From positions 1 through 20,206 of IMG/VR virus record IMGVR_UViG_2667527827_000004: a DNA stretch of 20,206 bases; one strand, given 5' to 3'. Positions 921 through 13,847 of the stretch are shown here, in pieces (the first letter of the stretch is position 1; every line of letters begins with the position of its first letter). Below the pieces are notes generated by a model, which worked only from the letters and a program-made list of their open reading frames with translations, searched no databases and had not been told where the DNA came from. Position numbers and translations under genes: made by a program. The DNA comes from a virus (Duplodnaviria > Heunggongvirae > Uroviricota > Caudoviricetes).

Positions 921-3475
<2,555 letters not shown>

Positions 3476-3485
3476 NNNNNNNNNN
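3476..3485. other. Assembly/scaffold gap (10 N) joining two unrelated sequences
   Basis: Run of 10 n characters. Flanking sequence switches from acrB codon ~199 to codon 100 of a phage tail gene L homolog, a junction with no biological logic. Confidence 0.95.
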
Positions 3486-3785
3486 TCCGACCAGACTCTG
3501 CAGGTCTTCCGCCATCGCGGTGACCATGCCGTGCAGGTTAGAAACCGTCAGTGTCGGACGGGCAGCACTGCCCTTGCCGTTCAGTTCAAATCCCGTCCCC
3601 TGAATGGGATACGCCTGATACTGTCGCCCCTGCCAGGTGATCGGCTCACCTTTTTCGTTCTGCTCATTACAGAAAAAATAACGTTCTCCACCGACCACTG
3701 TCAGATCGATTTCCCAGAGCACCACCTGGGCTGACTGAGTGAGGCGTGTCGTCTCATGATGTGTTTCCTGTGGAATATCCTGCAT
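3486..3785 (-). CDS. L: Minor tail protein L (lambda gpL-like), N-terminal 100 codons only, 3'-truncated by gap
   Basis: MQDIPQETHHETTRLTQSAQVVLWEIDLTVVGGERYFFCNEQNEKGEPITWQGRQYQAYPIQGTGFELNGKGS... closely matches the lambda gpL N-terminus by recall. It sits in the expected position after M. Confidence 0.85.
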
Positions 3786-3794
3786 CAGAGACTC

Positions 3795-4124
3795 CTATGC
3801 CACGACCTGTTCAAAATCTGCCGTTATGGTTACCCACAACGCCCCCACGCTTGCCGACCATTTACGACAAACCACCCTGATCGGCTTCCAGTCATAAGGT
3901 GGCGTCCACTGAAATGCGCGGACGCCACCGTGCCGTTCCAGAAAGGCTTTTAAAGATGGGTGTTCACATTTACGAACACGTATCGTCACGCTGTAAGTCG
4001 ACAACTGGTTATTCAGTCCCGCCGCACGACGCTGTTCATAACCATCGCCCAGCTTCACTGTCACCACTTTCGGCTCTGATACCACATTCATATCCGGGCG
4101 CACTTTCCAGTGAAACGTCTCCAT
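3795..4124 (-). CDS. M: Minor tail protein M (lambda gpM-like)
   Basis: 109 aa, the same length as lambda gpM, with a clear match by recall (lambda MKTFRWKVKPGMDVASVPSVRKVRFGDGYSQRA... versus METFHWKVRPDMNVVSEPKVVTVKLGDGYEQRR...). Its start overlaps the H stop codon (ATGA). Confidence 0.9.
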   Translation of the reverse strand: METFHWKVRPDMNVVSEPKVVTVKLGDGYEQRRAAGLNNQLSTYSVTIRVRKCEHPSLKAFLERHGGVRAFQWTPPYDWKPIRVVCRKWSASVGALWVTITADFEQVVA

Positions 4125-7100
4125 TACCGATATGCTCCACTTAACCGACCACCATCACGGGCCTGCTGTTGCATAAAGTCCGCTGCCGCTTTTTTCCCAA
4201 GGTCATAAACCACCTTCAGGGCAGCCGGACCTATCTGCCCGTTCGTGCCATCGTTATTGATCTCGATGTTGTACTGCGGGGCAAACATCGCCATACCTGA
4301 ACCACCAATATCCGCCACAACCCCCAGCTTACCGTCAGCACCACGACGCAGTGGCAGAATGGCTTCAGGTCCCGCTTCCCCCATCACACCCGCGCCTTTT
4401 GCAAAAGCAAAAAACGTCGGACGGTTAACCACCGTGCCACTGTAACGACTCAAATCAGCAGACTGATAAATCCCCCCATTGGCATTCAGGGAAAGGCTGC
4501 TGAGATCAAATCCCAGTACACTGCCAATCCCTTTTATCGATTTCATCATGGTTGCCTGCGCCAGGATTTTCGCCATATCTGACAGCACCGAAGAGGTGAA
4601 GGATTTGAAGTTGAGTTTGCCGGTAGTGACAAAAGTTGCCAGGCCATTTCCCATGTTGCTGAAGGCTGACGAGAACACCTGTTCTGCTGTTCCTGCCGTA
4701 TTGTCTGCATCCACGGTAAAATCCTGAAATGCACGCAGGACTCCGTTTTTCCAGTTACCCTGCACAACTTCAAGCTGTTGCCAGTAACGGCGATTCTCAT
4801 TCAGTTGTCGGTTCAGGCTCTCCGTCAGCGCCTGCTCGGCCTTTCTGTAGTCATCCGTGTTATATGTCCCTTTCTGCTCACTATCCCGCCTCAACTGCTC
4901 CAGCTGTTGCTGGTATTTCTGGCGAAGACTCAGTTGTACCTGATATCGCTGCCGCTGCTGATCACCCATACCCACCGTGGCGATATCCAGGTCATGTTGC
5001 TGACGCTGAGCGAGCTCTTCTTCAGCCAGTTGACTGGTCAGCTGAATTGTTTTTTTCTTCAGATCGTTGAGTGCCGTCTGTTTCTGAAGCTCCTGCTGTT
5101 TTACATCCAGCAGCGTCAGTGCCTGAATCAGTTCATCTTTACGGGCCAGCACACTCTTTTCATCTGCCGTCAGTTTTTTCCCGTCCAGATCGCTGATGCG
5201 CTGCTGCAGAGCCAGAAGCTGTTTATGCGCTTCTGTCATCTTTTCAGTGGCAATGCCTGCTGACTGTCTTGCAGCAGCAATCTGTCCTTCCACCTGTGCC
5301 TGTTGCTGACTGTACTGCAGCAATAACCGGGTGGCCTCATCATTACGGGTTTCGCGTGTTTTTTTCTTACCGGATGCCAGGGCTTTCTCGTAACGTTCAT
5401 TTTCACGTTGTATCGCTGCATCCCTGACAGCCTGATCGGCGTACTGCATGGCATTAATACGCGCAATTTCACGCTGATGTCGTGCTGCTTCCGTTTCATT
5501 CATCCGGTTCAGTGCAGCATTTTCAGCATTACGTCGTTTCTGTTGCTCCTGATAATTCCGCTCTGCCTGCTCTTTTGCATCCTGCAAATCCTTCTGGCGT
5601 TTTTTCTCCTGAAGATCGTTAAGACGCTGCTGATCGTATTCAACCTGAGAAGATGATGCCGTCCAGGGGAGTCTTTTCGCCCGCGACACTTTCTCCTGTA
5701 AAGCGGCAATCTGTTCATCCAGCGAGTCTTCACGACCAATATTCATGGCCGCATCCCAGAAACGACTCCATAAATCAGACAGATACTTCAGCGTACTGCC
5801 AAGCGCATTGAGGTTATTATCAATATCCGCAGTACGCCGACCGGTTTCCTCTGCCAGTGCAGACATGGCTATCCGTGCAGCATCACTGGACCGTCCCTGA
5901 TCCCCAAGGACACGTATCTGCTCAAGCTGAGTGGCAGTAAGAAAATGCAGCTCATTGTCCAGAGCCTTCGCGGCATTTACAGGATCATCCTTCAGCCGCT
6001 TAAACTGATTTATGGTATCGCTGACCGACTGGCCAACCGATCGCTCCATCTGTGCGGCAGCTCTCGCCACCATACCGATATCGTTTCCACGAAATGCACC
6101 ACTCCCCACCACCTGAGCCAGCACACCGGCTGCAGCATGTTGCGTGATACCATTCCCGGAAATAGCACGACTGAGCGTCCACAGCTGCCCGGCAGTGACT
6201 CCGGCATAATGCCCCGTCAGCGACAACTGGCGGTTAAATTCTTCCCCCTCCTTCTGACCGTCATACCAGGCTTTACCCAGACCATAGACGGACGCGGCAA
6301 TACCGCCAATAACCCCGCCAAGCATCATGCCTTTCGGTGACATCAGAGTGTCTATCCATCCGGCACGGTTAGCCAGCGTTATCCCGGATCCCCTCAGCGC
6401 CCCTAAATTGCCGCGGGCCAGTTCACCTATCAGAACGCCTATCTCCTGGCGGGCCGCTGCACTTTTCAGACCCAGCGAATGCGTGGCTTTTCCTGCCTGC
6501 TCCATTTTGCGGATATACACTTCTGCAGCACTGCTTACCCCCAGCTGGGCAGCCTTAGCACGAAGCAACTCAGAAGAAGAAAGATTCTGGCGGGTTGCCT
6601 GCTCTTTAAGCTGACGGATAAACGCCACTTTCTGTCGGGTAGCCTCTTCCTCAGCCTGCGTAAGAACACGGGTTTTCGCCGTAACCTCAGAAATCAGCGC
6701 CAGATAATCCTGCTGACCAATCCCGCCACTGTTTCTGGCCTGTCGGATCTGCTGCTGAATACGCTGTAATTCCTGCAGCCCCGCACTGGCCTGTTTCACA
6801 CTGTCAATCTGACGATAAAACGCAGCAGCTGCTTTATCCTGAGCCTCCGCCAGAGCCATGGCCTGCGCCTGTTCCTCGCGCATTTTCTGGCTCAGTGCCT
6901 CCATACGCTGGCGGGTTTTCTCCACCTCGCGGGCCATGCGTTCATGAGCCTGTGCGTTCTTCTCCACCGTCTGCGCATGGACGGATGCGGCTGTTGCAGC
7001 CGAAGACGCCGCCTGCGTTGTCTGCCGGGCGGCCTGAGTCTGACGCTCCATAAAACGCTGCATACGGGCAGAAGACCGTTCTGCATCGCTGGCTGCACCA

Positions 7101-7189
7101 TTCAGAAGGTTTTTGATACGGGGAATTTCATTTTTAAACTCTGCCGCATCAATCCCCAAATCAATGACCAGGTTGGCTATCTGGTCCAT
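4124..7189 (-). CDS. H: Tail tape measure protein (lambda gpH-like)
   Basis: Very long Ala/Gln/Arg-rich coiled-coil-like ORF between T and M. After the likely start it reads MDQIANLVIDLGIDAAEF, resembling the lambda H N-terminus (LVVDLSLDAARF). I favour the ATG at 7189 (GGAGG 8 nt upstream) over the ORF-track start at 7219, which is actually a TTG codon. Confidence 0.85.
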   Translation of the reverse strand: MDQIANLVIDLGIDAAEFKNEIPRIKNLLNGAASDAERSSARMQRFMERQTQAARQTTQAASSAATAASVHAQTVEKNAQAHERMAREVEKTRQRMEALSQKMREEQAQAMALAEAQDKAAAAFYRQIDSVKQASAGLQELQRIQQQIRQARNSGGIGQQDYLALISEVTAKTRVLTQAEEEATRQKVAFIRQLKEQATRQNLSSSELLRAKAAQLGVSSAAEVYIRKMEQAGKATHSLGLKSAAARQEIGVLIGELARGNLGALRGSGITLANRAGWIDTLMSPKGMMLGGVIGGIAASVYGLGKAWYDGQKEGEEFNRQLSLTGHYAGVTAGQLWTLSRAISGNGITQHAAAGVLAQVVGSGAFRGNDIGMVARAAAQMERSVGQSVSDTINQFKRLKDDPVNAAKALDNELHFLTATQLEQIRVLGDQGRSSDAARIAMSALAEETGRRTADIDNNLNALGSTLKYLSDLWSRFWDAAMNIGREDSLDEQIAALQEKVSRAKRLPWTASSSQVEYDQQRLNDLQEKKRQKDLQDAKEQAERNYQEQQKRRNAENAALNRMNETEAARHQREIARINAMQYADQAVRDAAIQRENERYEKALASGKKKTRETRNDEATRLLLQYSQQQAQVEGQIAAARQSAGIATEKMTEAHKQLLALQQRISDLDGKKLTADEKSVLARKDELIQALTLLDVKQQELQKQTALNDLKKKTIQLTSQLAEEELAQRQQHDLDIATVGMGDQQRQRYQVQLSLRQKYQQQLEQLRRDSEQKGTYNTDDYRKAEQALTESLNRQLNENRRYWQQLEVVQGNWKNGVLRAFQDFTVDADNTAGTAEQVFSSAFSNMGNGLATFVTTGKLNFKSFTSSVLSDMAKILAQATMMKSIKGIGSVLGFDLSSLSLNANGGIYQSADLSRYSGTVVNRPTFFAFAKGAGVMGEAGPEAILPLRRGADGKLGVVADIGGSGMAMFAPQYNIEINNDGTNGQIGPAALKVVYDLGKKAAADFMQQQARDGGRLSGAYR

Positions 7190-7490
7190 AACGCACACCT
7201 CCGGAAATACCTTCCCCAAGATGCATCAGTTCTTCGTCCGTTCGCTCCGGTATCCCGTTCTCTTCCGGTAAAAGGCTGAAATCAGCCACCGCAGCATCAC
7301 TGCTGCCGGACACCATTCTCACGATCAATGCCTTCAGCGAGGCAAACTGCGCATCCATCCACACATCACTGAAGCTCTGCATCCGGAAATAATCGCCCCA
7401 CTCACCAAGCTCAGTGGCCGACATTTCCGACAGCATCCGCCGCCAGTCTGCCCGCCTGAACTCCCGGGCAAGCCGCATGACAAACTGCAT
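7161..7490 (-). CDS. T: Tail assembly chaperone T segment (expressed as G-T fusion by -1 frameshift)
   Basis: ORF lies in the -1 frame relative to G and is open from 7523, overlapping the last codons of G. Position between G and H is as in lambda. See the finding on the slippery site. Confidence 0.7.
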   Translation of the reverse strand: MQFVMRLAREFRRADWRRMLSEMSATELGEWGDYFRMQSFSDVWMDAQFASLKALIVRMVSGSSDAAVADFSLLPEENGIPERTDEELMHLGEGISGGVRYGPDSQPGH

Positions 7491-7498
7491 TTCCCGCG

Positions 7499-7888
7499 TC
7501 AGGACTTTTCCGGCGTCAGCACCTCATGCTCCAAATCCCCGGCATTCTCAATGGCTCCCATACCGCTCAGCGACAGAACCATCTCCGCCCCCGCTCCCAG
7601 GGCATCATACGACCATGTTGTAATAACGGATGCGCAAAGCGTCTCAACATCCTGAGACTGTTCCGCATTCCACAGTGAGCGGGAAACCAGCCAGGCATTG
7701 ATATCCATCCCCATCCGCAGAAAAGCAATCTGTCGTTCAGCCTCCGGCAGTTCTCCCTCTTCGGCATCAAACTTTGCCGTTCGCTGCTGAACAAACGCCA
7801 GATATTCAATTCTCTGCAGCCCGGACAGCTCACTGAGCACCACGGACTGCTTTTCATAATTAAACGTGCCCTGTTTCAGAAACATCAT
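7499..7888 (-). CDS. G: Tail assembly chaperone G (lambda gpG-like)
   Basis: MMFLKQGTFNYEKQSVVLSELSGLQRIEYLAF... resembles lambda gpG (MFLKTESFEHNGVTVTLSELSALQRIEHLAL...). Start taken at the ATGATG at 7888, downstream of GGTGGAG; the ORF-track start at 7927 is an N-terminal extension. Confidence 0.85.
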   Translation of the reverse strand: MMFLKQGTFNYEKQSVVLSELSGLQRIEYLAFVQQRTAKFDAEEGELPEAERQIAFLRMGMDINAWLVSRSLWNAEQSQDVETLCASVITTWSYDALGAGAEMVLSLSGMGAIENAGDLEHEVLTPEKS

Positions 7889-7901
7889 GTTCTCCACCTG
7901 C

Positions 7902-7925
7902 AAAAAAGCCCCGGATAACCGGGGC
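7902..7925 (-). terminator. Rho-independent terminator/attenuator between V and G
   Basis: Hairpin GCCCCGG-ATAA-CCGGGGC (7908..7925); A-run 7902..7907 on plus gives T6 after the hairpin on the minus strand. Lies in the 57-nt V-G spacer. Confidence 0.6.
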
Positions 7926-7945
7926 AAATGATGAGTATCGTCCTG

Positions 7946-8689
7946 TTAACCTGCGGCGCTGACAGCCACCGCAGCCACTGCCACAAAATCGCCGTCAGAA
8001 GTCATGCCCACAATGCTGACACTGCCCTGCTTCACGCCTTTCACCGTGGCCACAAGCCCGTTCAGGGTCACCGTGGCAGTCTGTGGATCTGTCGAATGCA
8101 CACTGATCGCTTTGTCACTGGCTCCGTCAGGTTTTACTGTAAAGGTCAGCGTGGTGGTTGCTCCCACTTTTACACTGGCAGATGCCGGTGCCACCGTCAG
8201 CCCGGTAACGCTCACTGTTTCAGTGCCTTCCTCTGCCAGATACGGACGCCCCACACCGCTGATTTTCACTGTGTGGGTCATCACGTCTTTTGAGGCAATG
8301 GTTTTACCCAGTGAGCTCAGCCAGCCACGGAAAACATCAACAGTGCCGTTGGGATATTTGATACGAAACGCGCAGACTTCACCGGAGTCGAACAACTGAA
8401 CCAGTTTTTTCTGTCCGCTGTCACCCGGACGCCAGGCCAGCGTCGCCGAAGTATCACCGACGGATTTCTGCCCCTGGGTTGTCGTTTTCCAGTCTGCATC
8501 TTCATCATCGAGATAAGTGTCATCTTCTGCATCAGCGGTCATTTCGCCAGGTTGCAGATCCTTCACCATCGCAAGACGCAGCCAGTCAGTGTCCGATAAA
8601 GGGTTCGCAAACGCATCGCCCTTGCCGGTGTACATCCAGAACGTCGTTCCCGCACCTTTCGTTTTTGCCAGTGGATTTGGTGTGGTCAT
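7946..8689 (-). CDS. V: Major tail protein V (lambda gpV-like) with C-terminal Ig-like domain
   Basis: MTTPNPLAKTKGAGTTFWMYTGKGDAFANPLSDTDWLRLAMVKDL... matches lambda gpV ([36 protein letters not shown]...) by recall. Start ATG at 8689 is preceded by AGGAGG with 5-nt spacing; the ORF-track start at 8695 is a GTG two codons upstream. Confidence 0.9.
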   Translation of the reverse strand: MTTPNPLAKTKGAGTTFWMYTGKGDAFANPLSDTDWLRLAMVKDLQPGEMTADAEDDTYLDDEDADWKTTTQGQKSVGDTSATLAWRPGDSGQKKLVQLFDSGEVCAFRIKYPNGTVDVFRGWLSSLGKTIASKDVMTHTVKISGVGRPYLAEEGTETVSVTGLTVAPASASVKVGATTTLTFTVKPDGASDKAISVHSTDPQTATVTLNGLVATVKGVKQGSVSIVGMTSDGDFVAVAAVAVSAAG

Positions 8690-8700
8690 TGCCACCTCCT

Positions 8701-9964: not shown

Positions 9965-10280
9965 TGAGTTTTACCGGCACTTCTTCTGCACTGGTTCCGG
10001 CATCTGCCCAGACAACCCCGACCAGCGGATCAGAGCCGCTGTTAGTCAGCTGAACTTTTCCGGACTTCAGATAAACCTTCTTACCCGTTTTCATGTCATC
10101 CGTTTTCAGTTTAGGCAGGATAAACACACCTTCGGTCATGCCGTCGCCTGTTTCACCCTGTGGAATATCGGTCAGCGCCACCGCAAAAACATCACCCACC
10201 TGCACCAGATCTCCGCTGCTGATGGCTGCACTGGCAACAATCGCCACCGTTTTTCCTTCTTCTACAAAATTCTTTGCCAT
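9957..10280 (-). CDS. DUF2190-like putative head decoration/cement protein
   Basis: MAKNFVEEGKTVAIVASAAISSGDLVQVGDVFAVALTDIPQGETGDG... is a small Gly/Val/Ala-rich protein encoded immediately after the capsid gene. Start ATG at 10280 is preceded by GGAGA; the ORF-track start at 10325 is an extension. Confidence 0.5.
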   Translation of the reverse strand: MAKNFVEEGKTVAIVASAAISSGDLVQVGDVFAVALTDIPQGETGDGMTEGVFILPKLKTDDMKTGKKVYLKSGKVQLTNSGSDPLVGVVWADAGTSAEEVPVKLNV

Positions 10281-10366: not shown

Positions 10367-12394
10367 TTACGCCGTACATTTCACCAGACCGCGGTGATCA
10401 ACTGGCGCGACACCGGCGTCAATACGCACTTTCGTTGTCACGCCATCCACACTGAAGCCCTCCATCTGATCAATATATGGCGTATCCACACCGTTGAGAT
10501 AAGCCACTTCAATCGTATCGGAGCCTTTTGACGCAGCCAGGTAGAAGGTGGTCTGGCTGTTATCATCAAGACGAGGCTCTGCAATAACGGTCGCAAAATC
10601 TTTCACCGGGTTAATAATACCGGCGTTAATGTCAGCCCCCTTGACACTTGAGGAGCGAATGACCTGGTTAGCAACAGACTCCATCGCCGTCGGTACCAGT
10701 ACGAACGCAGGACGAATATTCAGATGACGCTCCCCCTCTTTCTGAACGCGCATCAACTGGCGGGCTTTATCCAGCGATGCCACGTCCATTGCAGCGCTCT
10801 CCAGTACGTTTGCATGTTTCGCTTTATCGAACAGACTTACATTATCTGTGGAGATTTTCGGGTTAGACGTCAGAATGGCATAAACCAGATCGGCAATAGT
10901 GGATTTCGCCGCACGGCCCAGTTTCATCGGGACATCGGTCAGCATATTCAGATCATCATTGATAATGGCCTGACGGGTGATACTGAACAGCTCGCCATAG
11001 GTCGCCAGTGCAATAGTGGCCTGTTTATCTCCGGTGGTGACGTATTTATATTCCGCCCCTTCACGCACCTGACGCAGAGCACTGAAGCCACCCATACCCA
11101 CACGATGGGCAATTTTAAAATCAGACAACTGACCTTTCCGCGTCCACTGTTCATAGGTTTCAGGGGCATCTTCCCAGCCCTGCAGAATGGCTTTGTTCGC
11201 AACATCCAGCAGAATATTACCGAAGTCAGACGTACTGTGTGTGAACGCCGCACCGACCATCTGCATCGGGTTATAACTGGAAACCCCAATACCCCGTTCA
11301 GTCAGTGACATACGGGCATATTCACGCAGGGTCATCCCGTTGTAGACATTATCACGTTCGGTTTTTTCAAATCCGGCACGCGCCATCAGCGCCTGGCGGA
11401 TCCCGTCCCCCACAAAATTACCGTTACCGGCATAAATATGAGCCGGGGTATTTTTATTGGATGGCGTGGACTCGCGCCCCATCTCGTTCAACAGCTTTTC
11501 GCGGGCCTGCTCCAGCGAACATTCAGGATCGGCAAGACACTGAGCCTGCAGCGTCTGATAACGCCCGCCAAACATGGCAAACAGATCATTAATACCGTTT
11601 ACACGCGCTTTTTGCTCTGCCAGTACCTGCGCACGGATGCTGTTTTCATCCACCACGGGTGCTGCTGCCTGCACTGGCGTCCGGGAGGCTTCAGGTTCAT
11701 TATCCTGTACGCGTGGAGCACTGTTGCGTGGCGGAGTAATCATGTTTCGAATGGATTCCGGCATCTTTTTAAATTCCTCTGTACGTTTTGACTGAATACA
11801 TGCCATTGCCTTAACGGCTGGCGTTACCTGATCAGCAAATCCATGTGCCAGACATTCGGCACCGGACATCCAGGTCTCATCCGCCAGCATGGCAGCAATT
11901 TCATCGGTGGTTTTCCCGGTTTTCTGTGCATAAGCGGGTAACAGAACCGCCTCAACTTTATCGAGCAGGTCGGCATAGGTGCGCATGTCCTCCGCATCAC
12001 CGCCCGTAAAGCCAAATGGTTTATGAATCATCATGAAGGTGTTTTCCGGCATAATGACCGGGTTTCCCACCATCGCAATGACCGACGCCATTGACGCCGC
12101 CACACCGTCGACATAAACGGTAATGGACGCACCATGTGTTTTCAGCGCATTAAAAATGGCGATGCCTTCAAAGACATCGCCACCCGGTGAATTAATATGG
12201 AGATTAATGTGGGTGATATCGCCCAGTGCATTCAGATCACTGATAAACTGCTTCGCTGTAACACCCCAGAAACCAATCTCGTCATAAATATAAATATCCG
12301 CGTCACTCTGGTGACCAGCCTGCATCCTGAACCAGGAATTATTCTTCGGACTGGTCGTCGGTGTGCTGCGGCTCATGTCGTTTCGTTGCGGCAC
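10367..12394 (-). CDS. Prohead protease (ClpP/S14-like) fused to scaffold-like linker and major capsid protein
   Basis: N-terminal region (ADIYIYDEIGFWGV...INSPGGDVFEGIAIFNAL...YVDGVAASMASVIAM...MIHKP) has a ClpP-family protease signature. Middle region is Ala/Gln/Glu-rich. C-terminal ~330 aa resembles a major capsid protein. Proposed start is the GTG at 12394 (AAGGAGG 5 nt upstream), in frame with the ATG at 12376; the ORF-track start at 12586 lies deep inside the portal gene. Confidence 0.75.
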   Translation of the reverse strand: MPQRNDMSRSTPTTSPKNNSWFRMQAGHQSDADIYIYDEIGFWGVTAKQFISDLNALGDITHINLHINSPGGDVFEGIAIFNALKTHGASITVYVDGVAASMASVIAMVGNPVIMPENTFMMIHKPFGFTGGDAEDMRTYADLLDKVEAVLLPAYAQKTGKTTDEIAAMLADETWMSGAECLAHGFADQVTPAVKAMACIQSKRTEEFKKMPESIRNMITPPRNSAPRVQDNEPEASRTPVQAAAPVVDENSIRAQVLAEQKARVNGINDLFAMFGGRYQTLQAQCLADPECSLEQAREKLLNEMGRESTPSNKNTPAHIYAGNGNFVGDGIRQALMARAGFEKTERDNVYNGMTLREYARMSLTERGIGVSSYNPMQMVGAAFTHSTSDFGNILLDVANKAILQGWEDAPETYEQWTRKGQLSDFKIAHRVGMGGFSALRQVREGAEYKYVTTGDKQATIALATYGELFSITRQAIINDDLNMLTDVPMKLGRAAKSTIADLVYAILTSNPKISTDNVSLFDKAKHANVLESAAMDVASLDKARQLMRVQKEGERHLNIRPAFVLVPTAMESVANQVIRSSSVKGADINAGIINPVKDFATVIAEPRLDDNSQTTFYLAASKGSDTIEVAYLNGVDTPYIDQMEGFSVDGVTTKVRIDAGVAPVDHRGLVKCTA

Positions 12395-13847
12395 TGCTGC
12401 CTCCTTTATCACTGGCCGGATCGGTATCAAATACCAGATCCAGCTTGCGGTTTTCATCAATTTCGGCCTTGCGCCGACGTTTGACATCATCCGGATTACG
12501 ACCACCAGCACGTACCCAGTCTGATTCTGTCGCCGCTCCACCACGAATCTGGATTTTCCAGGCCTCAGCCTCCTTAACAGGGTCAATCCACGGCATCACC
12601 GGTCCGGAATACACCGCGGTATACAGTGAAGAACGGTCAAGATCGCGGGGTAGCCTGATAACACCGGATGCCACAGCCTGTTTCAGCCAGGCACGATACA
12701 TCGGACGGGTGACGGCACCAATAAACCAGTCCTGCAGGATCAGGTAGCCATCAGTGGATTCAACCAGCTCCTGACGCTGGGCGCTGTAAGTGCCGTTATA
12801 GTTGCGCGCTGTACTGGAAAAACTCAGACGACTGCCCGCCGCCACGGCACGCAACTGACCATTACGAAAAGTTTCAAGGTTAGGATTGGGGCGATCCGAC
12901 TTCACCATTCCGATTTCTTCGCCGGGTTTCAGATCATCGTAAATAATGCCTGGCTGAATGGTAAGCTCGCGTTCCTTATCCTTGCTGCCATTACCATCCG
13001 CTTCATAGCTCTGCCCGTCGCCTTTCCGGATGTACATCCCCAGAGCAGCGGCGATCCTTGCTGCAGTCAGCTCAGAATCTTCATACTCTTTCAGAGCACT
13101 GAGGCGGATCAGCACACCGGACAATAAAGACGTCCCGCGCATCTGGTGCAGACGGCGAACAAATTTAAGATGCAGCATTCGCTCTGCATCCACTTCTTTG
13201 GTTTCCATCTGCCGTCCGGATACGGGACGGCTTTTATACACCAGATATTTTTCGGGACGCCCCCAGTCATCAACAAACACGCCCTGATTCAGCCTGTTGC
13301 TCTCATCACTGGTCATGGGAATAAAGTCCGGCTCGAGCGCCTCCAGCCAGAAATGAACACCGGCAGAAGGCGTCAGGCTGTTTATGCGCCCGGAAACCAT
13401 CTGGGCAAACACCTCACCATCGCGCAGCCAGGTACGAAGCATCAGACGTTCCAGCATCGGACGGGTAAACTGCCCGGTGACTTCCGGGCTGACAGACCAT
13501 TCACTCCATCGGGTGCGAATCTCCGCAGCCAGGTCACGGGCAATGGCCCCATTGCGTAATACCGGATGTGGCTCGACAATAATCCCGTTTTTCCCCACCA
13601 CCCGTTCTTCCAGCTTGTCAAATACACCAATAACCAGATCGTGGTTGTTATCAAGGTAACGGGCCTGCTCACGTAACGACACGGCCCCGTACTGGCTTAA
13701 CTGGTCGGCAGTTCGGTTCTCCCGTCGGGCTTTGTGTGTCCGCGTCGTTTTTACGGCCTCATAAGCCTGGATCACCGCACGGGAACGCAGCCTTGCCGCT
13801 TTCCATCCTGGTGAAAAAACGCCAATCACATCATCAAGAATTGCCAT
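12339..13847 (-). CDS. Portal protein
   Basis: ~500-aa ORF between W and the protease/capsid gene, the canonical portal position and size. Start ATG at 13847 overlaps the W stop (TGATG). The ORF-track start at 13919 is an upstream extension into W. Confidence 0.85.
   Translation of the reverse strand: MAILDDVIGVFSPGWKAARLRSRAVIQAYEAVKTTRTHKARRENRTADQLSQYGAVSLREQARYLDNNHDLVIGVFDKLEERVVGKNGIIVEPHPVLRNGAIARDLAAEIRTRWSEWSVSPEVTGQFTRPMLERLMLRTWLRDGEVFAQMVSGRINSLTPSAGVHFWLEALEPDFIPMTSDESNRLNQGVFVDDWGRPEKYLVYKSRPVSGRQMETKEVDAERMLHLKFVRRLHQMRGTSLLSGVLIRLSALKEYEDSELTAARIAAALGMYIRKGDGQSYEADGNGSKDKERELTIQPGIIYDDLKPGEEIGMVKSDRPNPNLETFRNGQLRAVAAGSRLSFSSTARNYNGTYSAQRQELVESTDGYLILQDWFIGAVTRPMYRAWLKQAVASGVIRLPRDLDRSSLYTAVYSGPVMPWIDPVKEAEAWKIQIRGGAATESDWVRAGGRNPDDVKRRRKAEIDENRKLDLVFDTDPASDKGGSSAATKRHEPQHTDDQSEE

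Follow-up and report, generated by a model that had tools for sequence, protein, structure and literature searches.

In phage lambda, the tail assembly chaperone gene G is expressed as G and, through a −1 shift at the heptamer G_GGA_AAG, as a G-T fusion (Levin, Hendrix & Casjens 1993; Xu, Hendrix & Duda 2004, 2013; both cited through PMC5009743). E. coli decodes AAA and AAG with one and the same tRNA-Lys, for which AAA is the better match, and A_AAG is the most shift-prone tetramer because of this preference; sites of the form NNA_AAG, such as G_CGA_AAG of IS1222, are also used productively (PMC5009743). G_GGA_AAG ranks among the best heptamers, and a bare A_AAG shifts at about 0.15% without a 3′ stimulator and at 5.6% with the IS3 pseudoknot (PMC4066793). 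In the reconstituted E. coli system of Peng et al. 2019, AUG GAA AAG served as an unfavourable control beside G GGA AAG; it gave mainly the zero-frame product, with tRNA-Glu facing a second-position mismatch on GGA (PMC6924986). A G.U mismatch in the P site, at the first codon position, carries a penalty of only about 5 kJ/mol in dnaX variants (PMC6787027).

GGAAAAG is already annotated as a shift site in two phages. The N15 record has a misc_feature on GGAAAAG at 10027..10033 that reads ‘slippery sequence for -1 translational frameshift’, and the LLS record carries a joined chaperone CDS together with a ‘minus-one programmed translational frameshift site GGAAAAG’. Both are record annotations and, as far as found in the literature, not demonstrated products; for the clade studied here, or for any phage with GGAAAAG, no published demonstration of a G-T fusion product was found in the searchable literature. 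Among papers treating GGAAAAG as a possible shift site, a literature search turned up Peng et al. 2019 and no other. For the T gene of Gifsy-1, the annotation reads ‘part of tail assembly chaperone gpG by translational frameshifting’. The ‘twofour’ motif of PRFect probably covers GGAAAA.

The window analysed here is a stretch of viral DNA of 20,206 nucleotides and holds a lambdoid prophage of E. coli that resembles mEp460, cdtI and Ayreon. The region is 97–99.8% identical to phi458, Ayreon, mEp460 and cdtI, and the module is found in 1847 of 5426 complete E. coli genomes. We argue that the heptamer G_GAA_AAG at 7511..7505 on the minus strand is very probably the programmed −1 ribosomal frameshift site of its G/T tail-assembly chaperone pair. 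The genes lie in the order V-G-T-H, as in lambda, all on the minus strand, with two overlapping open reading frames between V and H:

7946..8695, minus strand: V, major tail tube protein bearing an Ig-like domain at its C-terminus (PF16461, 2.7e-66, and PF02368), upstream of G
7902..7925, minus strand: hairpin GCCCCGG-TTAT-CCGGGGC with T6 after it, terminator-like, in the interval from V to G, read from the sequence
7499..7888, minus strand: G, tail assembly chaperone, zero frame, 129 amino acids, from ATG 7888 to TGA 7501..7499
7161..7505, minus strand: T segment as it would be read after a slip, −1 frame, 114 codons, from GTC 7505..7503 to the stop at 7163..7161
4124..7189, minus strand: H, tape measure (PF06791, PF09718 and PF24622), overlapping the end of T

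Profile matches bear out the assignments of G and T made in the preliminary description of this DNA, as does their position between V and H. G matches PF06894 Phage_TAC_2 (1.8e-39, 134.9 bits, cut-off 27 bits) and the equivalog TIGR01674 phage_lambda_G (5.7e-56, 188 bits, cut-off 74), and the −1 reading frame matches PF06223 Phage_tail_T, minor tail protein T (5.1e-15, 56.1 bits, cut-off 25.9). The conceptual G-T fusion matches TIGR01715 phage_lam_T over fusion residues 133–239 (2.3e-39, 134 bits, cut-off 77). The start of G is preceded by the SD sequence GGAG, with a pairing energy of −7.2 kcal/mol, and the ATG of H at 7189 by the strong SD sequence GGAGGTG at −15.3 kcal/mol. The V reading frame as listed begins at GTG 8695, and a few codons inside it there is an ATG that has a strong SD, in the context AGGAGGTGGCAATG. 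In a hit that is 100% identical across 7100..8000, PGAP annotates a tape-measure gene of 3066 nt. Minor tail protein M is also found among the neighbours by profile search, and a rho-independent terminator is annotated at the position of the 7902..7925 hairpin in mEp460, Ayreon and N15.

The prophage contig breaks off inside gene L, and 10 consecutive N at 3476..3485 link it to the acrB-tomB region of the chromosome. A 954-residue open reading frame at 921..3785 that resembles a tail-L::AcrB fusion is an artefact of this scaffold gap, and the L and AcrB halves are adjacent in no complete E. coli genome. Several assemblies of unrelated bacteria hold low-coverage contigs 100% identical to the lambda G-T region, evidently control-DNA contamination.

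The features of the overlap between G and T are these:

7524..7526, minus strand: TGA in the −1 frame, the upstream limit for a productive shift; the −1 frame is open from 7523
7520..7525, minus strand: internal SD-like GAGGTG, a possible 5′ stimulator, with a 16S 3′-end pairing of −9.3 kcal/mol
7505..7511, minus strand: proposed −1 shift heptamer G_GAA_AAG, the sole motif in the overlap with an A-site homotriplet
7499..7501, minus strand: TGA that ends G in the zero frame, with one codon (TCC) between it and the heptamer
7488..7490, minus strand: ATG in the T frame, used as the start of T by PGAP and by the mEp460 record

The last codons of G on the minus strand are GAG GTG CTG ACG CCG GAA AAG TCC TGA. 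From 7523, the −1 frame runs for 120 codons to its stop at 7163..7161 and overlaps G by 25 nt. The heptamer reads (CC)G GAA AAG in the zero frame and GGA AAA G in the −1 frame. When every in-frame codon of the overlap is scanned, G_GAA_AAG is the single motif with a homotriplet in the A site, and the codon-by-codon scan finds no canonical X_XXY_YYZ heptamer in these 25 nt: YYY is AAA, but the first three bases, GGA, are not a homotriplet. Read in the G frame, GAA AAG is an in-frame A_AAG whose P-site codon ends in A. These readings agree with the preliminary description, which had placed T in the −1 frame, open only from 7523, confined any slip to the last codons of G, and singled out G-GAA-AAG as the only slip-prone sequence, one base away from lambda G_GGA_AAG. 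Its coordinates are all correct, and the lambda heptamer, read at the homologous place, differs by that one base.

GGAAAAG by itself is common in the window, with 6 copies on the two strands against 3.3 expected. The significance of this copy comes from its position and its conservation. From the same expectation, simple arithmetic gives a chance of about 1 in 1000 for an in-frame GGAAAAG within a 25-nt overlap.

GGAAAAG is unchanged in all 82 close relatives, which answers in the affirmative the question, raised in the preliminary description, of whether it is conserved in related prophages. A pattern search with fixed flanks, in which heptamer positions 1–3 and 7 were left free, recovers GGAAAAG in 119 of 119 viral contigs of the clade among the matches listed; no variant of the heptamer occurs among these 119 stretches. 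More divergent G-T loci came from a collection of phages and from bacterial genomes taken one per species; in each of them we located where G stops, where the −1 frame opens and which shift-prone motifs are present. Clustering of G at 70% identity or more gives 26 clusters, with four heptamers at the site:

GGAAAAG: 21 of 26 clusters, including Gifsy-1, N15, mEp043, Citrobacter, Proteus, Xenorhabdus, Enterobacter, Kosakonia, Kluyvera and Erwinia
GGGAAAG: 3 of 26 clusters, the lambda group, a Serratia/Symbiopectobacterium group and Edwardsiella
AAAAAAG: 1 of 26 clusters, a Stx1-phage type
AGAAAAG: 1 of 26 clusters, Morganella

The strict X_XXY_YYZ pattern is thus absent from 22 of the 26 clusters, and since they depart from it as the window does, the pattern is a rule of thumb for lambda-type G/G-T shifts, not a condition of membership. 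The term ‘non-canonical’ in the preliminary description holds against the strict pattern; within the lambda-type G family it does not, GGAAAAG being the majority form and GGGAAAG the minority.

The position of the site is conserved along with its letters. When the G proteins of eight lineages, 32–57% identical to the window’s G, are aligned, the Lys encoded by AAG (K128) is an invariant column. In a nucleotide alignment of 26 lineages, the 100 nt from the heptamer onwards align free of gaps in the T register, and the zero-frame stop varies in position across relatives, lying 0, 3 or 15 nt past the heptamer. An invariant Lys and a gapless T register next to a moving zero-frame stop make the window’s site the homologue of the lambda shift site; judged by its distribution, GGAAAAG is the majority form of the family and not an oddity.

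A further regularity lies in the first base of the heptamer: of the 22 clusters with GAA_AAG, 21 have G there, after a preceding codon that may be GCG, CCG, CTG or ACG. Against a background frequency of G at the third position of 0.41, taken from the same codon boxes in the same genes, this gives P of about 1e-7 with clusters treated as independent, a value that is too optimistic given that related lineages are counted separately, as they are in the SD-like statistics below. The base is a synonymous third position in the zero frame and is never read in the −1 frame after a slip at this site. Morganella, with A_GAA_AAG, indicates that G at this position is not absolutely required.

From the anatomy, homology and conservation of the site we infer that a slip takes place, together with its tRNA details and its rate, along the following lines. 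The majority of ribosomes would read CCG GAA AAG TCC and stop at TGA, yielding gpG of 129 amino acids. A small fraction, once GAA (Glu) and AAG (Lys) are decoded, would slip back by one base and go on with GTC CTG ACG, producing a G-T fusion of 242 amino acids. The main driver would be the single tRNA-Lys of E. coli, shifting from AAG to the better-matched AAA. On balance, we favour a simultaneous re-pairing of the P-site tRNA-Glu on GGA, with G-C at the first position, G.U at the second and A-U at the third. The conservation of G at a synonymous site suggests that this re-pairing contributes, and that the site does not work by slippage of tRNA-Lys alone. The preliminary description had the shift depend mainly on A-site Lys-tRNA slippage; that view agrees with the classification of Peng et al. 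2019 (PMC6924986), but the conserved base-1 G points to a share for the P site, and the picture is probably incomplete.

By conceptual translation, the predicted fusion consists of G residues 1–128 and 114 T-frame codons. Its junction is EVLTPEK followed by VLTREMQFVMRLAREF, so that the protein would read LTPEK/VLTREMQF across the slip, and the predicted Asp-N peptide that spans it is DLEHEVLTPEKVLTREMQFVMRLAREFRRA. The fusion is predicted at about 27 kDa, and a free T starting from Met-7490 at about 12 kDa. By analogy with lambda, the G-T fusion would connect the tape measure H with the tail tube protein V.

On the 3′ side of the heptamer, no RNA structure finds support. The first 65 nt past it fold no better than shuffled sequences (z = +0.34), and the only stable fold in the window, with 65 and 105 nt folded, begins about 31 nt downstream. 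When 70 nt were folded in each of 26 lineages, many showed a local hairpin about 34 nt downstream, which we rejected as a 3′ stimulatory structure since it is too distant and shows no covariation; an alifold consensus over the 26 lineages has an energy of −1.28 kcal/mol and 0 covarying pairs. A search of 7100..8000 against Rfam returned a chance match only.

On the 5′ side, the SD-like GAGGTG is a candidate modulator. Its GAGG core stops 10 nt short of the heptamer on the 5′ side, and the spacing at which SD sequences stimulate −1 shifts is 9–14 nt (PMC5009743). The core is present in 119 of 119 clade contigs among the matches listed, as GAGGTG in 76 and GAGGCG in 43. Across the family, 11 of 27 lineage representatives carry an SD-like core 9–12 nt upstream, where the rest of G would lead one to expect about 2, again with related lineages counted as independent and with an enrichment partly tied to a conserved Glu codon. 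The element is missing from many lineages with GGAAAAG, and we do not regard it as a family-wide feature: it is enriched, yet many lineages lack it. In the window, the upstream GAGG may add stimulation to the −1 shift, and a modulating role is plausible from its spacing and pairing. With no conserved 3′ structure, and with this GAGG as a possible stimulator, the efficiency of the shift is probably low, at or below the roughly 1:30 of lambda.

Several other accounts of the site can be weighed against this reading. The one that survives best concerns only the tRNA detail: a −1 shift by tRNA-Lys alone, on the A_AAG tetramer or the GAA_AAG hexamer and in the A or the P site, in which tRNA-Glu does not re-pair and the base-1 G is irrelevant. 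Such a mechanism has precedents, since NNA_AAG hexamers such as G_CGA_AAG of IS1222 work by slippage of tRNA-Lys only (PMC5009743), and Morganella has A at base 1. It leaves the conservation of the base-1 G, at a synonymous site, in 21 of 22 clusters and behind four different preceding codons, without a role; moreover, single-tRNA sites need a strong 3′ stimulator to pass about 0.15% (PMC4066793), and none is conserved here. We regard slippage of tRNA-Lys alone as a real but less likely contender. It divides with tandem slippage, which takes the larger part, the confidence that we place in a shift at this site, and the protein product would be identical.

A second account dispenses with the shift: T would be made independently, by initiation or by termination-coupled re-initiation at ATG 7490, and GGAAAAG would be incidental. 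The preliminary description had named translation of T from this ATG as a finding that would speak against a shift, and the codon does exist in the T frame. In PGAP and in the mEp460 record, T is a separate CDS of 109 amino acids from ATG 7490, the Ayreon start lies still later, and neither PGAP nor the mEp460 nor the Ayreon annotation marks a frameshift in G-T. The ATG lies 8 nt past the G stop, near enough for coupling, and GGAAAAG is weakly slippery in vitro (PMC6924986). The start itself is poor, however: its SD pairing, which abuts the ATG, is weak at −4.3 kcal/mol, where G has −7.2 and H has −15.3. No more than 2 of 27 lineages carry a Met here; in many, the first T-frame Met comes 10–24 codons later, and one has no Met in the 30 codons read. 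The T-frame residues immediately after the Lys (V/A, L/V/I, x, x, E) are conserved and in the window lie upstream of the only ATG, the T register is gapless from the heptamer onwards, and the match to TIGR01715 begins one residue before the T Met. The conservation of the heptamer, with its synonymous first base, also argues against an incidental GGAAAAG. On this evidence, T is probably expressed mainly by a route other than ATG 7490. Re-initiation there could not serve as the mechanism of the G-T family and is unlikely to be the main mechanism in the window’s prophage, and independent synthesis of T as a whole seems to us improbable.

The weakest accounts can be dealt with briefly. Slippage of RNA polymerase on the run of four A in the heptamer, giving a −1 transcript in place of a ribosomal slip, is very improbable, since RNA polymerase slips productively on far longer homopolymers, usually of at least 7, and the whole G_GAA_AAG register is conserved, including its final G and the reading frame, as fits tRNA re-pairing. 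Equally remote is a relic in a decaying prophage, disabled by a one-base change from GGGAAAG and making no G-T fusion: the window’s prophage sequence does stop inside gene L at 3486, and GGAAAAG is weaker than the lambda heptamer in vitro (PMC6924986), but the break in L is the 10-N scaffold gap and not a deletion, the identical site is present in the plaque-forming phages Ayreon, mEp460, phi458 and cdtI, and the heptamer is the majority form of the family and invariant in the clade contigs among the matches listed.

The preferred reading, a programmed −1 shift at GGAAAAG, leaves knowledge of tail assembly itself unchanged. It has a direct consequence for annotation: T is free-standing in PGAP and in mEp460, Ayreon, phi458 and cdtI, and should be a joined G-T CDS with slippage at GGAAAAG. 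It also presents a natural and strongly conserved use of a heptamer that is ranked as poorly slippery in vitro, and the synonymous base-1 G and the recurrent SD-like element offer hints of how low-level shifting is tuned. For research on recoding, the family supplies a comparative series, GGAAAAG, GGGAAAG, AAAAAAG and AGAAAAG, each with and without the upstream SD-like element, that could be used to measure near-cognate P-site re-pairing and the effects of a 5′ SD on low-level frameshifting.

A more far-reaching interpretation is one that we put forward tentatively, as somewhat short of an even prospect: that GGAAAAG is the selected majority heptamer of the lambda-type G-T chaperones of Enterobacterales, not a degraded copy of the lambda heptamer, and that it works with G.U re-pairing of tRNA-Glu, SD-like tuning and switches that control the ratio of products. 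If so, the family would use a heptamer that biochemists treat as an ‘unfavourable’ control, and second-position G.U re-pairing of tRNA-Glu would explain the conserved base-1 G. In many lineages, the window’s among them, an SD-like element 9–12 nt upstream would help to set a very low G-T:G ratio, and the repeated switches between GGAAAAG and GGGAAAG would represent evolutionary control of that ratio.

Among known systems, the E. coli dnaX cassette, in which A_AAA_AAG is flanked by an SD-like element on the 5′ side and a stem-loop on the 3′ side, shares with the window an AAG Lys codon in the A site, read by the single tRNA-Lys, and an internal SD-like sequence within the stimulatory spacing of 9–14 nt, the role of which in the window we propose by comparison only. 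Unlike dnaX, the window has G_GAA_AAG, with a different P-site codon, and no 3′ stem-loop, and the efficiency expected here is far lower. The A_AAG and NNA_AAG sites of IS3, IS1222 (G_CGA_AAG) and Bacillus cdd (A_CGA_AAG) are similar in the movement of the A-site tRNA-Lys from AAG to AAA and in a P-site codon that ends in A without forming a canonical XXX triplet (PMC5009743). They differ in that they rely on strong 3′ pseudoknots or stem-loops, none of which is conserved here, and the conservation of base 1 in the window’s family is not predicted by a pure hexamer model.

The closer comparison is with lambda. Both phages have homologous G (PF06894) and T (PF06223) genes between V and H with T in the −1 frame, the Lys codon of the shift site is positionally homologous, the T frame is gapless from the heptamer onwards, and neither has a conserved 3′ structure. 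In the window, base 3 of the heptamer is A instead of the G of lambda, and the P-site codon is accordingly GAA (Glu) and not GGA (Gly), which means that re-pairing would need a G.U pair at the second position. The zero-frame stop lies 3 nt past the heptamer here and 15 nt past it in lambda, identity between the two G proteins is about 32%, and the −1 reading frame has 120 codons here against 159 in lambda.

Genes 14/15 of N15 and 11/12 of LLS come nearer still at the site itself, with the same heptamer, the homologous Lys codon and a homologous G-T pair. Their G proteins are nevertheless divergent, those of the N15-like and mEp043/LLS-like groups being about 34–37% identical to the window’s. 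The codon before the heptamer is GCG and the zero-frame stop lies 15 nt downstream, both as shown for N15, against CCG and 3 nt here, and neither N15 nor mEp043, the representative of the LLS type, has an SD-like core 8–14 nt upstream.

The nearest lineage outside the window’s clade is that of Gifsy-1 (STM2596/STM2595), in which G is 55–57% identical and ends in the same CCG GAA AAG TCC TGA. It differs from the window in having no ATG at the position of 7490, where it reads REL instead of REM, and in its SD-like core, which is AGGA at 12 nt in Gifsy-1 and GAGG at 10 nt here. Set beside these relatives, the window’s site is one ordinary case of the well-known frameshifting of G into G-T, carrying the commonest heptamer of the family.

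Upstream of the proposed −1 frameshift site of the tail assembly chaperone genes G and T (G_GAA_AAG, minus strand, 7511..7505), a Shine–Dalgarno (SD)-like core recurs among divergent G-T loci. Counted as GGAG, GAGG or AGGA at −9 to −12 nt from the heptamer (loci L084–L166), such a core lies 9–12 nt 5′ of the shift site in 11 of 27 lineages versus approximately 2 expected. A conserved Glu codon partly confounds this enrichment, which was calculated with the kinship of the lineages ignored. The spacing between core and heptamer peaks at 10 nt. The elements flanking the heptamer and the G gene are as follows.

Elements around the G-T shift site
7522..7525, SD-like core upstream of the shift heptamer
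approximately +34 to +69 nt after the heptamer, GC-rich hairpin (homologous loci L088, L090, L106, L164, L003 and others)
7902..7925, minus strand, terminator-like hairpin GCCCCGG-TTAT-CCGGGGC followed by T6, between V and G

On the 3′ side, folding places the GC-rich hairpin (GGCGCG...CGCGCC) approximately 34 nt from the shift site in many lineages, including lambda and N15. The region codes for LAREFGRPDWRA; no consensus structure was recovered for this hairpin, and no covariation across lineages. The hairpin may thus merely reflect the coding sequence. In Morganella morganii (L109) and Proteus (L102–L107), the heptamer runs directly into the zero-frame stop (AAG TAG or AAG TAA), and the Morganella heptamer, A_GAA_AAG, lacks G at its first base; these natural variants are of use for telling P-site re-pairing from stop-codon effects.

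Further upstream, the terminator-like hairpin that separates G from the major tail gene V has counterparts annotated as rho-independent terminators in mEp460, Ayreon and N15. It would reduce G-T-H transcription compared with that of V.

We compared the T annotation of PGAP (WP_001161009.1), mEp460 and Ayreon (loci L001, L002 and L165). PGAP and mEp460 list T as a stand-alone gene from the ATG at 7490 (7161..7490), and the Ayreon record starts it at a later ATG. A ribosomal-slippage join for G-T is absent from all three annotations of the prophage module, so the public annotation of T is probably incomplete.

Among the genome-contig matches, some (L140–L150) are 100% identical to lambda G-T and carry the labels Kitasatospora, Neobacillus, Oceanobacillus, Pseudomonas, Shewanella, Chromatium and Leeuwenhoekiella. 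Their coverage, where the contig name states it, is low (approximately 1–10×), and they evidently stem from lambda control DNA that contaminated these assemblies.

Within the window itself, a run of 10 Ns at 3476..3485 links the acrB-tomB region of the chromosome to the prophage contig, which breaks off within tail gene L; the two halves lie side by side in no complete E. coli genome. The 954-amino-acid open reading frame at 921..3785 (minus strand), which reads as a Phage_tail_L::AcrB fusion, was rejected as an artefact of this scaffold gap.

In the head module, a long open reading frame occupies 10367..12586 on the minus strand. Its counterpart, in a match 100% identical over 7100..8000, is named by PGAP ‘ClpP-like prohead protease/major capsid protein fusion protein’. 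The arrangement contrasts with that of lambda, where C, Nu3 and E are separate genes.
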